Origin: Thermostichus sp. DRC_bins_24
GTDB taxonomy: Bacteria; Cyanobacteriota; Cyanobacteriia; Thermostichales; Thermostichaceae
Direction of reading: 5' to 3'
Length of the DNA: 64,000 nucleotides
Assembly (NCBI GenBank): GCA_039794845.1
Contig: JAUQVK010000112.1
Coordinates: forward strand, 11,121-75,120
The notes under the pieces are model-generated. The model did no database searches. It worked only from the letters and a program-made list of their open reading frames with translations, and was not told the DNA's origin. Below are positions 2,527 to 11,155 of this stretch, one piece after another (the first letter of the stretch is position 1; every line of letters begins with the position of its first letter). Both the position numbers and the translations under genes were made by a program.

Positions 2527-4440
2527 CTATCCGCCCAAGTCTTGCAGGCGATAGAGGTTGGCATAAATGCCATTCAGAGCCATTAGCTCCGCATGGGATC
2601 CCTGTTCTTTCAGTTCTCCCCGTTGCAGCACCAAGATGCGATCCACGTCGCGGATGGTGGAAAGGCGGTGGGCAATGATGATAGCGGTGCGATCCTGCAG
2701 CAGGGTTTCTAGAGCCGACTGGATCAGGGCTTCTGTGCCCACATCCAAGCTGGCGGTGGCCTCATCCAACACCAAAATTTTCGGATTCCGCCACATGGCC
2801 CGCACAAAGCTAATCAACTGTTTTTGGCCGCTAGAGAGGTTGCTGCTCCGTTCCCGCACCGGCGTGGCATAGCCTTGGGGTAAGTCGCGGATGAATTCGT
2901 GCAGGTTCAGCTGACGGGCGGCCCGCTCCACATCGGCCAAGTCCCCAGTTTCCCCAAGGGTGATGTTTTGTTGGATATTGCCCGAGAACAAAAATCCATC
3001 CTGCAGAATCACCCCAAGGTGTCGGTGCAGTTCTGCCTGGGGGATCTCGCGAATATCCACACCATCGATGCGAATGGATCCCTGATTTACCTCATAAAGG
3101 CGGCAGAGCAAGCGGATGATCGAGCTTTTCCCCGCCCCTGTCGGCCCCACCAGGGCCACTTTTTCTCCGGGGCGAATCGTAAAGTTGAGATTTTTCAGCA
3201 CCCACTCATCGGCGGTGTAGCCAAAAGAAACATTCTCGAACCGCACCTCCCCCCCGGCGGAAGCAGGCAAGTGGCGGGGCTGAGCGGGATCCCGAATGGC
3301 AATCGGCAGGCTGAGAATGTTATCGATCCGTTCGACAGCCGTAAACCCCGACTGCAGAGCGGTAAATTTTTCCGCCAACTGACGCAGCGGGTTGAAAAAC
3401 CGTTGGGAGAACAGGATAAAGGCGTAGAGGCTGCCAAAGGTGAGGGGCTCGCTGGGTAACGGCAGGGATCCCCCCAAGCCTTGTCGCAGAGCCCCCGTAC
3501 CGGCCGAGATCACCTGTTGCCCCCCCACCCAAAGCAGGGCTGCTACCGCCAACCACGACACCCATTCCAAAACAGCGGACAAAGCGGAATCGTAAAGGAT
3601 AGTCTGATCGACTTCGTGAATGTAGCGCTGGTTAATGGTTCGGAAGATCTGCCCGTTTAGTCGTTCCCGCCGAAACAGTTGGACCACCGTGATGCCCAAA
3701 ATGTTTTCTTGAATCCAGGAGTTGAGTTTGGAGAGTTCTTCTCGCACACGAAAGTTGGCATCACGAAAGCGGCGCTGCAACCAAATGACGATGGCCCCAA
3801 TGGGAATGACGATGAGGATCAGCAGCAGGCCCAAATCCCAGCGTTGGCTGAGCATGACCACCGCGATTACCCCCAGGGTAAACAGGTCACTGACAATGCC
3901 GACGGCCCCCGTCGAGAAGACATCCCCCAAGGCTTCTACATCACTGGTGATGCGGGTGATTAATTTCCCCACCGGGGTGCGATCAAAAAATTGGGCCGGT
4001 AAGGCGAGAATGTGGGCGAACAGATCATCCCGAATGTCGCGGGTCATCAGCTGCCCCAACTTTTGGCTGGTATAGCCCTCCAAAGATTGGAAGCCCCAGC
4101 GCACCAGCACCGTCAGAACCAACAAGCCCACAAAGGGCCACAGGCCGGAGAGGATCCCGTCCCCGCGTTCCATCGCCTGGGCAATCGGGCCATCCAGGGC
4201 TCGCTGCAAGATCAAAGGCTGCACTGCATCCGCAAGTGCCAAGGGGGGCAAAAAGGCCAAAGCTGCCAGCAACAACTTCAGGTGGCGACGGGCATAGGGC
4301 CAGAGAATCCGCAGCAACCGCCAGTCGCTCTCTCGTTGAGGTTGGGGATCCGAATCTGCAGCCGTATCGGGGGGAGTGGCAGCAAAGGTCACAGAGCACA
4401 CCCAAGAACAAATGAAGAACAAAAAAGTGGTGCAGGGCAC
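2527..4440 (-). CDS. ABC exporter, fused permease and ATPase (MdlB/MsbA-like)
   Basis: N-terminal TM helices, GPTGAGKS Walker A, LSSGQKQ signature, ILVLDEATA Walker B. True start may lie a few codons downstream. Confidence 0.92.
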   Translation of the reverse strand: MPCTTFLFFICSWVCSVTFAATPPDTAADSDPQPQRESDWRLLRILWPYARRHLKLLLAALAFLPPLALADAVQPLILQRALDGPIAQAMERGDGILSGLWPFVGLLVLTVLVRWGFQSLEGYTSQKLGQLMTRDIRDDLFAHILALPAQFFDRTPVGKLITRITSDVEALGDVFSTGAVGIVSDLFTLGVIAVVMLSQRWDLGLLLILIVIPIGAIVIWLQRRFRDANFRVREELSKLNSWIQENILGITVVQLFRRERLNGQIFRTINQRYIHEVDQTILYDSALSAVLEWVSWLAVAALLWVGGQQVISAGTGALRQGLGGSLPLPSEPLTFGSLYAFILFSQRFFNPLRQLAEKFTALQSGFTAVERIDNILSLPIAIRDPAQPRHLPASAGGEVRFENVSFGYTADEWVLKNLNFTIRPGEKVALVGPTGAGKSSIIRLLCRLYEVNQGSIRIDGVDIREIPQAELHRHLGVILQDGFLFSGNIQQNITLGETGDLADVERAARQLNLHEFIRDLPQGYATPVRERSSNLSSGQKQLISFVRAMWRNPKILVLDEATASLDVGTEALIQSALETLLQDRTAIIIAHRLSTIRDVDRILVLQRGELKEQGSHAELMALNGIYANLYRLQDLGG

Positions 4441-6436: not shown

Positions 6437-7396
6437 TTAAGACCACCGTGCCCACTTTATCCACCTCCTGGGAGCCACCCTACGAAGGGCGCAGGCATGG
6501 TAGCTGGGTTGACTGCCGTCCCTTGGACAAGCCACCAACCCAAAGCCCACACCATCCGCCACCATCTGGGTTGGCTTCAACCCAAAATCAGACGGGATTC
6601 GGACAATAGGGGTCAGGGATCCCTGCCCATCGGTACCTGGCGAGCCCTGCAAATCAATATCGTGAATCGGCACAAAATCACCATCATTTTGCTCCCGCAA
6701 CACCCGACCATCCAGCACCACCGACACCCCCTGACTGAGAGTGGCCCTGAGAATACTGGGATCCCCTTGGGCAGGCGCCAAAAACCAGCAGTCTTGCCCC
6801 TGATGAAGGAGCTTAGTCTCTCTTTTATTCTTTTATAAAGAACTCCTTAATAAAGAAAAATCCTTCATCACCGGGAAACTATCGAAATCCAACAACCGAG
6901 AGGTCTGCCCCGAGCTATCCACCTGTAACAACTCTGAACCACAACAGGTTTGCACCGCCGGATTTTGCCGAGCGAAAAAGACCGGGAAAGACTCTCGGGT
7001 GAGAGCTACGCTATTTCCCACCTGCACCAAGTTGGACAGGTATTCGAATACTCCTCCAAAAGAGGAAGCAAACGGGAGATTCTCCGCAAAAGTCGAGACT
7101 TGGCCCTGGGCATCAACCTGGCTCAAAACGCCGATATTCCGAGTTCTAATCGTTGCGTTGTAGCCCTGAGTGGCTTTCAACAGCATCACCCCACCGTCAA
7201 AAGCCCCGATTCTCCTGAACCATTCTGAATAGCCTGGCCATGGATTTCTCTCCTCCTCCAACACCAGGCTCACCTGCCCTGAAGAGGTGATGCGAGTCAG
7301 TCGTGACCGGGTATCAATACATCTGCTCGAGGTTAATGAAAACTCCCGACAGTTATCCTCCAGAACCCAATAATCAGAGCCCGATTTCACCAAGTC
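6437..7396 (-). pseudogene. C-terminal remnant of a probable beta-propeller protein, 5'-truncated at the IS end, with one in-frame stop
   Basis: ORFs 6833-7429 and 6437-6781 are in the same frame, separated by one TAA (6835-6833) and 17 open codons. Repeated blade-like motifs LTRITSSGQVS, LSQVDAQGQVS, LLQVDSSGQTS. No native start: the frame begins inside the IS end. Confidence 0.6.
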
Positions 7397-8450
7397 GGCT
7401 CTCCTAGACTTATGGTGATCAGCGATCACTAAGTCCAGAAGGCTGTCAATAATCGAGCTCTGAAGTTGGTCATATTGGTAAACCCGTACCCTTGTCGCTT
7501 TATTACCTTGATCCGGTTGTTGATTCCCTCCATCATCCCATTAGTCACACGATTCACAAAATAGTGACAGATCCCCTGAAGATGATTCCGGACTGCCTTG
7601 ACCCCATCGGTGTGAACCCTTTGAGCCTCTGCCAGCCATGCGACCAGTTGACTCTCTCCCTCCTTTACAGTAATTATGCTCTCAAAAATGCTCCGCAACC
7701 TCTCTTTCAGTTCATAGGCTTGCCTCAGTCGTTTGCTCCGTTTTAAATAGATCTCCAGTTTTGCCTTTTCTTCCTCAGTTAAGTCTTTATTATTCTTAAG
7801 TATGATTCTTTTTAATCCTTTCTCTGTAATCTGAGCCTGTCGTCTAATTCTGTCTAACTCCTGGATGGCTTTCTGCCACATGGAATCTGTCATAGACGAT
7901 ACGGGCCTTCGGAAATACCCGCCTGACAACTTTGGTAAATCCAGCCCACATATCGATACTCACTTCTTCCATCCTCAGCCTCTCTTCCTCTGCCCATAAG
8001 CTTTCCAGCCTTGCAATAAACTCTTCTTCTTTGTGAACATCAATCACCTCTAGCAGACAATGATTCTCTAGGTCGCCGATAACTGTCACGTATTGATTGC
8101 GCCCTTTTCGTAAACTGATCTCGTCGATACTGATTTTCTTGGCCCGAAACACTGGGGCTCTTTTGGGCTTGTTGCTGCTCAGACTGACGCTTGAATATCC
8201 CTTCCACTTGGTCTCGACTTAATCCTTCATTCTGACTAACTTGTTCAATCGTCGATTGTTTGACTTGTCGATAAATAGAGGTTTCATAACGCTGTGTATA
8301 GGAGCGTTCCCAGTCCACGAATGAGAGGACTTCAGTGGAGTAGTGCTGGCAGTGAGAGCAATAAAATTGGCGGCGAGGCACTTGCAGATAGACTGAACGC
8401 CCAAACAGGGACAAGTCTCGCACAACGAACCATTCTACAGTAAATCTCAC
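7397..8450 (-). mobile_element. ISL3-family transposase remnant (two frameshifts, 5' end missing)
   Basis: Three frames carry zf-ISL3 (QVPRRQFYCSHCQ), DDE (ISIDEISLRKG, YDRFHV) and C-terminal (NGMMEGINNRIKVIKRQGYGF) motifs. ISL3-type end GGCTCTCCTAGACTTATGGTG starts at 7397. AT-rich, no GGGATCCC. Confidence 0.9.
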
Positions 8451-8460
8451 CTGTTGGTAT

Positions 8461-8697
8461 TTGGATACGTTTCATTCCTTTTATCGCCACTTTTTGCTGA
8501 AGCTGTTCCATGAGGGATTGGGCAAGCCCGATCGCAATCCTGAATTGAACAAACTGCTGGGCAAAATTCCCTATCTGAATCTGAATGGCGGCTTGTTTGA
8601 AGTCCACCAGTTGAAGGAAAAATATGACACCACTCTGCACATTCCCGATGTGGTGTTTGAGCAAGTGGTGATGTTTATCAATTCATACATCGGGTGA
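8461..8697 (+). pseudogene. Internal fragment of a type IIG restriction-modification / DNA methyltransferase gene
   Basis: FHSFYRHFLLKLFHEGLGKP...LLGKIPYLN(LN)GGLFEVH is typical of type IIG enzymes; CTGAAT is duplicated at 8575-8586; both ends of the gene are missing. Confidence 0.7.
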
Positions 8698-8730
8698 GCA
8701 TTGGCGAAGCCTCTCTGCAAGAAAATCGCG

Positions 8731-8796
8731 GCACAACAACGCGCTGCACCCGACCGCCAAGAGGTTATCTGCCGCGGGTGAGCTAACCCGTTCCCC
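8731..8796 (+). other. Orphan integron attC-like recombination site
   Basis: R'' GCACAAC (8731-37), 5-nt spacer, L'' GCTGCACCCG (8743-52) pairing with L' CGGGTGAGC (8775-83) with an extrahelical G, 6-nt spacer, R' GTT (8790-92). Confidence 0.7.
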
Positions 8797-8829
8797 ATCA
8801 ATGTCCTTTGCTTTCAGGGATCCCTTTCT

Positions 8830-9933
8830 TTAGCGCAGAAAACGAGCCAGTAGCACCATGCCGATGCCTCCGAACAGAATGTTGAAACTCCAGGCCGCCG
8901 CCCAAGGGGGCAAAGCCCCGGCTTCTCCCAAACTGCGGGACACACTTAAAATCACGTAGTAGCCAAACACCAACAAAATGCCGAAAACCACGCCCCCATA
9001 GCGCCCCACCCGGCGGGCCGTACTGGATCCCAGGGGCAGCGAGATCAACACCGCAAAAAAGCTGGCCAAAGGCAAGGAAAAGCGCAAATGAAACTCGGTG
9101 CGCAGGGCTTGGGTGTTCAGGTTAGAGCGGGCCAAACGCGCAATTCGCTCCGCCAATTCCGGCAAGCGCAACTCACTCGGGGGTACGGGCAGCTGCATCA
9201 GGGTGGCCAGATCCTCCGAGACCTGCAAGGGCTTACGGTCAAAGACCTGCTCGGCAATGCTGGTGCCGGTGGGACCATAGATGTGGGTCACCCCTTCACT
9301 GAGGCTCCACTCCAAACCATTCCACACCGCCTGAGCCGCCAAGGTCACTTCTGCCAACTGATAGTTGCCCCCCGGCAAGGGATTCACCCGCAGCAGGGTT
9401 ACATCTTGCATGGTGTTCAGGCGGGGATCCACCTGGCGAATGAAAAACCAGAGGTTGTCTTCGGTTTTGAAAAAGACGTCGTACTGAACCGGGGTGGTGG
9501 CTTGGGTGAGCAAAGCCTGCTGATCGATCTCGCGGATTTGCTGTTTGCTGGCGGGGAGCAGCACATTGCTAATGCCAAAGGCGCTGAGGCTCATGGTCAG
9601 ACCCACCAACAACAGGGGCCGGAAAATGCGGGAAAAAGGGATCCCAGCCGCTCGCAGGGCGGTGATCTCGCTATTGCCACTCAGTTTGCCCAGGGTGAGC
9701 ATGGTGGCGAAAAAGGCAGCGATCGGCATCCCCAGCACCACCATCTCCGGCATGTCCAGGGCCAAGAGGCGCAATACCATCAAAGGGGGGACGGATCCCT
9801 CCACCAGCCGCTCGGCTAGGGTAAACAGCCTGCCCACCAGCAGCAGTAGCGTTCCCCCCGCCACACCGGCCAGCACCGGGGTAAGCATCTGTCCAAACAG
9901 GTAGCGCTCCAACAGCCAGAACTTGGTCAGCAA
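8830..9933 (-). CDS. LptF/LptG (YjgP/YjgQ) family permease
   Basis: LERYLFGQML start, GKLSGNSEITALRAAGI motif, three TM segments, a periplasmic domain, then three more TM segments. Confidence 0.9.
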   Translation of the reverse strand: MLTKFWLLERYLFGQMLTPVLAGVAGGTLLLLVGRLFTLAERLVEGSVPPLMVLRLLALDMPEMVVLGMPIAAFFATMLTLGKLSGNSEITALRAAGIPFSRIFRPLLLVGLTMSLSAFGISNVLLPASKQQIREIDQQALLTQATTPVQYDVFFKTEDNLWFFIRQVDPRLNTMQDVTLLRVNPLPGGNYQLAEVTLAAQAVWNGLEWSLSEGVTHIYGPTGTSIAEQVFDRKPLQVSEDLATLMQLPVPPSELRLPELAERIARLARSNLNTQALRTEFHLRFSLPLASFFAVLISLPLGSSTARRVGRYGGVVFGILLVFGYYVILSVSRSLGEAGALPPWAAAWSFNILFGGIGMVLLARFLR

Positions 9934-9967
9934 AGGGGCTCTCCTCCGGCTTCACCGGCCACCTACT

Positions 9968-11155
9968 CTAGCCTAAGGGGGCTGGCGGCTCAGGGAGCTG
10001 TGAGGGGGTCGGAGCCCTATCGTGACCGACCTCCGCCCCCCAAGCCTTCAGGTAAGCCCGTTGCTCTGGGGAAAGGCGACGCACCTGGCGAAAATCGGCC
10101 CCTGCCACGATTGCCCCGGCATAGGCCCCGCTTTTGAAATCGGGTTTTTGTCCCGGTTGAGCGGGAGAGGCAGTTTCCAAAGGTCCGACAAACAGCAAGG
10201 CCCGGTACAGGTCAGCTCCCCTGAAATCCGCATGGCGTAGGTTGGCTCCGCACAAATTGGCATAGCTGAGATCACAACCCTGCAAGTTGGCCCCTTCCAG
10301 ACTGGCTTCACTTAGATCGATGGCCCGCAATTGGGTGCCGTGCAGATCGGCCCCCTCCAACATCGTCTCCAGTTTGACGACGCGGATCCCGTGCAGGCGA
10401 TCCCGTTGGTAGCCGCCTTTGCCATCCAAAATCGGGCGCCCGAGGTGATCGTCGCGGCGTAGGGGGCTAAGCAAATTGGCCGTCGAGAGAAAGCGCAGAA
10501 TCTTCGCTTTACCAAACCGATCCACCCCATTCAGCAGCGCGGCGGTGCGTCCGGCAGCAATGGCACGTTCTAAAGGCCAATCGTCCAACTGACCATCGGG
10601 GGCCAGCACCAGACCAGAAATCCCCTCGAAATAGGCATCGATGGTTTGCTGCTGGGTGATTACATTCTGCTGAATGGTCAGATCCCGAGAGATGATGTAC
10701 TGCCGCCAGGCAATGTAAGCCGCCAAAATGGCAATTAAAATTTGTCCTGCCGCTCCAAACACCTCCCCCAGCGCCCCGATGGCTTCCCAACTCAGGGATC
10801 CCACCCCCGTCAGGATCCCGCTCAGATACACCCCTCCCACCATCGCCAAGCTGAGGGCCACCCCCATCCACAAAGCGCCGGGCCAACTGCGCAACTGATG
10901 CCAGAGACTGCGCCCCACCCTGGCCCAGAGCTGTCGCCCCCACCAACCCGCCAAGCCCACCCAAGCCAGCACGGCACCCCAGCCCAAACCCGGCTGAGCT
11001 GTCAGCAGGGCCAGCACCCAGAGCCCTCCGGGGATCCCCAACAACAGCAGATTGAGTAGGGGCCGCCAAGGGGGGACAAGGGCAAAGGAGACCCCCGACT
11101 CGGGAGTGGGAGGGTCGAACGGCAGGAATTCGGGGGCAAAAGGTTTGGAGGTCAT
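9968..11155 (-). CDS. Membrane-anchored pentapeptide-repeat protein
   Basis: TM segments followed by ADLHG/ANLQG/ANLCG/ADFRG/ADLYR repeats; start placed at ATG 11155. Confidence 0.85.
   Translation of the reverse strand: MTSKPFAPEFLPFDPPTPESGVSFALVPPWRPLLNLLLLGIPGGLWVLALLTAQPGLGWGAVLAWVGLAGWWGRQLWARVGRSLWHQLRSWPGALWMGVALSLAMVGGVYLSGILTGVGSLSWEAIGALGEVFGAAGQILIAILAAYIAWRQYIISRDLTIQQNVITQQQTIDAYFEGISGLVLAPDGQLDDWPLERAIAAGRTAALLNGVDRFGKAKILRFLSTANLLSPLRRDDHLGRPILDGKGGYQRDRLHGIRVVKLETMLEGADLHGTQLRAIDLSEASLEGANLQGCDLSYANLCGANLRHADFRGADLYRALLFVGPLETASPAQPGQKPDFKSGAYAGAIVAGADFRQVRRLSPEQRAYLKAWGAEVGHDRAPTPSQLPEPPAPLG

Follow-up and report, generated by a model that had tools for sequence, protein, structure and literature searches.

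The paradigm attC sites of mobile and Vibrio integrons (attC of aadA7, VCR) have the layout R''-L''-loop-L'-R' with AAC/GTT cores; their central spacer does not pair, and the 3' arm of their bottom strand has unpaired bases. The site described here shares all of these features. The unpaired base of the L arm is a G on the bottom strand of the paradigm sites and a C in the cyanobacterial family. In studied integrons, the G|TT triplet of the R' box is the point at which the integrase cuts. Cassettes may also reach secondary sites, a route for which most demonstrations to date come from E. coli. Integrons have been reported in Cyanobacteria (Cury et al., 2016; PMC4889954), for which a taxon-specific attC model has also been published (Ghaly et al., 2021; PMC8352920). 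A single attC lacking an integron integrase is known as a SALIN, a term whose definition pairs a CDS with the attC (Loot et al., bioRxiv 10.1101/2022.09.11.507474).

In the 64-kb window analysed here (the whole stretch of 64,000 nucleotides, from Thermostichus sp. DRC_bins_24), positions 8672-8796 are very probably the 3' tail of a cassette whose gene has been lost, with a decayed SALIN-type attC relic in a low-GC mosaic. As in a SALIN, there is one attC with no other attC or intI within 55 kb, in chromosomal DNA beside a housekeeping gene; unlike in a SALIN, the CDS is gone, a chimeric 78-aa frame stands in its place, and an intI pseudogene is found elsewhere in the genome. SALINs are associated with a secondary genomic site (attG), and insertion into such a site is putative here. 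The site also resembles a CALIN in lying away from intI and in having possibly been spread or broken up by transposable elements, but a CALIN has at least two attC sites within ~4 kb, whereas only one credible site is found in the 64-kb window. A complete integron has intI with attI adjoining its cassettes, and the window contains no intI. Its box order, spacer lengths, two unpaired bases and conserved GCAGATAAC loop motif are those of cyanobacterial chromosomal attC sites, from which it differs in length (74 nt vs 93-96 nt, the loop having lost 20 nt), in an R' box that is family-like at GTT only, and in having neither an array nor an intact cargo gene.

A covariance model of these sites (R1, described below) matched the whole attC at 8727-8800 on the - strand, over its full length (model positions 1-95); the - strand is the model's bottom strand, and the cassette top strand is +. 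Read directly on the + strand, the R'' box GCACAAC (8731-8737), a heptamer that recurs among the attC sites of the integron array carried by the same-genus genome G004, is followed by a 5-nt spacer, AACGC (8738-8742), and by the L'' arm GCT(G)CACCCG (8743-8752), which forms nine perfect pairs with the L' arm CGGGTGAGC (8775-8783). Two bases do not pair, G8746 within L'' (bottom strand: C) and A8753 (bottom strand: T), and both bulges are kept in the cyanobacterial attC family consensus. The central loop (8753-8774) is shortened to 22 nt, 20 nt fewer than in sister sites; in an alignment to the sister cassette L176 (see below) this deletion is flanked by direct repeats RTTATCTG, and in metagenome contigs with the longer loop TCAGAGGCAAAGATTATCTGCGGCGGGTGA follows beyond 8771. 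A 6-nt spacer, TAACCC (8784-8789), then leads to the R' box GTTCCCC (8790-8796), of which GTT alone is family-like. Compared with the attC consensus RYYYAAC/GTTRRRY, the AAC and GTT cores are present and complementary, and the RRRY half of R' does not match, as is expected since that half of the box derives from neighbouring DNA; the R''/R' helix pairs through AAC/GTT and the outer positions only. The imperfect L''/L' repeat, the unpaired bases and the unpaired central spacers (5 and 6 nt) that characterise an attC are all present, and by analogy with studied integrons, crossover would be expected at G8790|T8791 in R'.

The site lies between a + strand frame (8461-8697), whose co-oriented TGA stop codon (8695-8697) is 33 nt upstream of the attC, and the stop codon, at 8830, of an lptF/lptG gene on the - strand. 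A preliminary description of this DNA had already read an attC hairpin with R''/L''/L'/R' boxes and an extrahelical G, a co-oriented stop codon 33 nt upstream, and neither intI nor a second attC in the window. This reading of the anatomy stands: the boxes are as described, R1 scores the site at 43.9 bits, and a search for intI in the 64-kb window found none. A second R1 match in the window (3757-3868, 17.6 bits) was rejected, as it lies inside an ABC-transporter ORF and is without AAC and GTT boxes.

Judged by structure alone, the hairpin is no more than would be expected by chance. Folding the site as DNA gave no signal on either strand relative to shuffles (z = -0.07 and -0.11), nor did a wider RNA fold (z = -0.45), and an Rfam search over 7000-10500 returned no attC-like family, only two chance-level, unrelated matches at E <= 10. 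A generic scan of the 3.5-Mb genome (AAC, 5-7 nt, a 9-bp stem with one bulge, 4-7 nt, GTT) gave 468 matches, so the structural pattern by itself is uninformative. BLAST found no further copies of the attC stretch in the genome; the only repeated part of the query was its GGGATCCC-containing flank. A terminator scan gave one weak site on the - strand (8750-8730; a stem with ATTTTCT and the tail GCGATTTTCT), with 0.7 expected by chance. This terminator-like stem sits downstream of lptF/lptG, and the hairpin may have a side role as a terminator alongside being an attC.

A lineage-specific model separates the site from these look-alikes. We built R1 from nine attC sites of the G004 integron array, leaving the candidate out; these source sites are co-oriented, lie between ORFs and stand just upstream of an intact intI, and 8/12 pairs of their L helix have changed on both sides. 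Even by eye, the candidate matches the ~95-nt repeats of G004 once it is reverse-complemented. Against the window, R1 matched 8727-8800 (-) with 43.9 bits and E = 6.3e-10 (for the 64-kb window; the genome-wide E for the same site is 3.5e-8). Across the genus, R1 found 25 matches in G004, 7 in G010, 4 in G008, 3 in G005 and 2 in the window's own genome (G000), and at E <= 0.01 it found none in the seven genus genomes without an intI over the family cut-off, three of which hold intI remnants below that cut-off. An nhmmer search of the window's genome was confident for the sites on contigs C83 and C112 only. The closest attC in G005 belongs to a cassette that by eye looks like a toxin-antitoxin pair, unrelated to the frame upstream of the window's site.

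The family extends well beyond the genus. A 20-base family core pattern was found in 118 stretches of a species-genome collection (~1 expected by chance), and among the 80 matches listed, nearly all are cyanobacterial, from many orders. Within 80 of these loci, R1 found 148 sites, often several co-oriented per locus, with compensatory changes in 11/12 L-helix pairs, 96% of cells paired, and AAC and GTT near-invariant. Family scores range from 25 to 89 bits with a typical length of 93-96 nt, which places the candidate's 43.9 bits at the low end. From the R1 match and the covariation of the family, the window hairpin is, as judged by its sequence, a genuine attC of this pan-cyanobacterial family. 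Similar sites downstream of ORFs in relatives, whose absence together with that of a covariance-model match would have told against the preliminary description, are present in the G004 array and in L176.

The closest relative of the site comes from a JGI metagenome contig, Ga0272446_1050390 (locus L176). Here, the stop codon of a 230-aa DprA-like ORF (Pfam PF02481) is followed by a ~57-nt spacer, a 94-nt attC scoring 64.2 bits with R1, and then a second ORF and a second attC. Window positions 8672-8792 are ~92% identical to this sister cassette, with a single 20-nt gap in the window's loop; homology starts just past the sister stop codon and stops at the GTT of R' (8792). The right-hand limit of the module thus coincides with the triplet that integrases cut in studied integrons, and the attC has the same orientation relative to its upstream frame as in G004 and L176, so that in both co-orientation and a boundary at G|TT the tail has the form of a cassette 3' end. 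Positions 8672-8730 (+), likewise ~92% identical to L176, correspond to the non-coding pre-attC spacer of the lost cassette. The L176 contig has 42-49% GC and HIP1-type GCGATCGC sites, whereas the window's genome has 57% GC and GGGATCCC sites, differences which indicate that the cassette tail is shared by different cyanobacterial backgrounds.

Contigs of two hot-spring metagenome runs reproduce the arrangement around the attC exactly. The runs are not fully independent of the genome, as one of them may be its own source sample; a 258-nt contig covering 8587-8844 shows zero differences. The first metagenome pattern that we placed across the spacer/attC junction gave no match, and no recombination joints at the site were seen in metagenome contigs, which drop rare forms.

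What lies upstream of the spacer is of different origin. Positions 8463-8666 (+) are an internal fragment of a large DNA methyltransferase gene (tblastn, 60% identity to aa 232-304 of WP_011153869, a ~1100-aa methyltransferase of Synechocystis plasmid pSYSX), and the remainder of that gene was not found elsewhere in the genome. An irregular junction at 8667-8671 separates it from the cassette tail. Contigs of runs X4, X2 and X3 carrying a methyltransferase-like gene match 8463-8666 and then continue into a different coding sequence, while other contigs share 8671/8725-8771 and then carry the longer loop; as contigs diverge on each side, 8667-8671 is the breakpoint of two unrelated pieces. The upstream frame (8461-8697, +), which encodes 78 aa, is therefore read from sequence as a chimera of the methyltransferase fragment and the translated non-coding pre-attC spacer ("MFINSYIG*"), since homologous DNA follows the stop codon in L176. 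The preliminary description had taken the restriction-modification fragment, or the C-terminus VVMFINSYIG* fused to it, as cassette cargo, and neither proposal is borne out: the former is an internal piece (aa 232-304) joined irregularly at 8667-8671, and the latter is no conserved C-terminus but non-coding spacer in the sister cassette. A smaller piece at ~8435-8463 seemingly comes from further upstream in the same methyltransferase gene; in a 3.3-kb contig of run X4, the part matching 8435-8465 is ~425 nt from the part matching 8463-8666, so the methyltransferase relic seems to be internally deleted too.

Next to this relic is a truncated and frameshifted ISL3-family insertion sequence (7397-8425, -). 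Its Pfam domains (Zn_ribbon_ISL3, HTH_Tnp_ISL3 and DDE_Tnp_ISL3) are split over three ORFs in three frames, and the N-terminus of the transposase is missing. Homology to other ISL3 copies covers 7397-8428, and intact copies diverge past 8425. The left end of the element (7397-7525) also has matches at no fewer than 20 places in G008 (82-91% identity), several of them at contig ends; this ISL3 family is highly active in that genome. Positions 6650-8750 have a GC content of 43-48%, and the flanks one of 55-65%. Two - strand ORFs in this low-GC block (6437-6781 and 6833-7429) have no Pfam or NCBIfam match, and a stretch 71% identical to the block's region occurs elsewhere in G006.

On the other side, the lptF/lptG permease gene (8830-9933, -; Pfam LptF_LptG, 7.9e-95) is native to the genus, with orthologues in 11/11 genus genomes at 77-87% identity. 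It converges on the attC, its stop codon standing 34 nt from R'. Clearly native sequence is first seen at 8816, with the GGGATCCC palindrome; the 23 nt that separate it from GTT (8792) are of uncertain origin, so that the host junction is not proven to lie at G|TT. Short matches around GGGATCCC link 8809-8829 to ~30 other places in the window's genome, resembling HIP1-type palindromes. Downstream of lptF/lptG, each genus genome has different DNA, and a search for an empty site in the 11 genus genomes found none, the flanks diverging right after the stop codon. A repeat, GTTTCCGTCCCCTTGCGGGGAAAAGGTAGGGATCAAC or its core CCGTCCCCTTGCGGGGAAAAGGTAGGGAT, occupies the place of the attC in G005, G006, G001, G011 and G007 (L046, L048, L049, L050, L051), and the two repeat copies in G006, with a ~38-nt spacer between them, look like a CRISPR array. 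Synteny with the G004 integron was considered and rejected, as lptF/lptG of G004 is on another contig with no attC nearby.

For the decayed cassette tail that we favour, we propose the following history. The stretch downstream of lptF/lptG is hypervariable, and IntI would have inserted a cassette there, or else the end of a small array; the cassette gene would later have been lost; and irregular recombination and IS activity would have joined the remaining tail to the methyltransferase fragment and the truncated ISL3 element, giving the low-GC mosaic. We infer both that the right-hand junction is the work of IntI and in what order the decay took place, and the tail would have arrived through a secondary chromosomal site, as the remnant of a small array at a hot spot, or passively in a foreign segment. 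It is possible, if somewhat doubtful, that the attC is instead the distal end of an ancestral array or cluster at lptF/lptG, the rest of which was erased by deletions and IS, rather than a single insertion at a secondary site. The hypervariability of this locus across the genus fits such a history, as does G010 (L054, C43, 7339-9530), where an ISL3 fragment and then two attC cassettes follow directly downstream of the lptF/lptG orthologue. However, the two sites of this cluster (7996-8051 and 9437-9530) have the opposite orientation, pointing away from lptF/lptG while the window's site points towards it, their sequences are not close to the candidate, and G004, whose lptF/lptG is the most similar one (87% identity), lacks an attC at this locus and carries its integron on another contig. 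The G010 cassettes themselves encode a 120-aa ORF without a Pfam match, an HxlR regulator and an NmrA-like protein.

Passive arrival of the attC tail within a foreign low-GC segment (~6650-8800), through IS or general recombination and without any integrase at the locus, would fit a block that also spans an IS, a methyltransferase relic and a 198-aa ORF, its at least three irregular junctions (8425/8426, 8463 and 8667-8671) and the uncertain origin of 8793-8815. We nevertheless regard it as improbable, given that homology to the sister cassette stops at the crossover triplet and that genus-typical sequence is back within 23 nt. More improbable still, to the point of being nearly negligible, is a chance hairpin or a terminator between convergent genes, unrelated to integrons. 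Although the fold energy is no better than that of shuffles, the genome holds 468 generic matches and a terminator-like stem occurs at 8750-8730 (-), R1 gives E ~1e-9 for a site absent from the model, the 92% identity to a metagenomic cassette tail is bounded by the stop codon and GTT, and the terminator scan found 1 site vs 0.7 expected.

As a decayed single attC, the site is a known kind of leftover and represents no new system or mechanism. It gives a clean and checkable instance of cassettes coming to lie beyond integrons and decaying there, with the recombination site outliving the gene, and it shows hot-spring Synechococcus-like cyanobacteria taking part in a pan-cyanobacterial cassette pool. 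In this genus, foreign DNA collects downstream of lptF/lptG, a hot spot that the site helps to mark and that is filled by CRISPR arrays, IS copies or cassettes depending on the genome. The methodological lesson is that a lineage-specific attC model can separate real solitary sites from hundreds of look-alike hairpins.

The preliminary description had called the site an orphan and had proposed to search for intI and sister attC sites; both were found, and "orphan" is apt locally and not genome-wide, given an intI on C45, an intI fragment on C40 and an attC on C83. The C45 gene (4741-5478, L013) scores 367.8 bits with NCBIfam TIGR02249 (cut-off 265) and adjoins chlH, its N-terminus being lost at the contig end. 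An in-frame TAG replaces the residue before NGYDIRTVQELLGH, upstream of the catalytic Tyr, and a contig of run X1 carries the same TAG. The second copy, a 3' fragment at C40:1-154 (L014), is 98-99% identical and has CAG at this codon. Summed contig depth over intI in run X1 is 100-300, vs ~17 for the flanking genome, so that several intI variants coexist in the community. Among 61 cyanobacterial relatives, 27 have an intI over the NCBIfam cut-off. G004 has a cassette array in which ~95-nt repeats stand between co-oriented ORFs, and an intact intI follows closely downstream. Cassette traffic into the lineage, which the preliminary description had deduced from the site, does occur, as same-genus arrays of up to 25 sites and the 27/61 intI genes attest, and is not news. 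The main array of G004 (C1, 1917145-1944541) is accompanied by satellite attC groups at ~0.43, 1.484, 2.044 and 2.090 Mb, of which the 1.484-Mb group adjoins an ISL3 copy (1485413-1486460).

Given a working IntI, the hairpin could, from its sequence, still serve as a substrate, since it keeps AAC/GTT, a perfect 9-bp L stem, both bulges and the spacers. The site is most likely inert today, to judge from the premature stop in the genome's intI copy. We think it unlikely that the attC still works as a substrate and marks the place where, in a thermophilic cyanobacterium, an integrase recently made an insertion at a chromosomal site other than attI. If it did, the site would directly attest that distant cyanobacterial lineages have recently exchanged cassettes in nature, by the secondary-site route, and the exchange partner would be a lower-GC cyanobacterium (42-49% GC, GCGATCGC sites) with a tail ~92% identical.

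The other attC of this genome (C83:9211-9304, L055; 46 bits with R1) is likewise solitary, and its R' side is without GTT. A truncated vapC, 81 aa long and matching the C-terminal half of VapC models, immediately precedes it, and the pair is flanked by copC/copD and DUF1775 genes.
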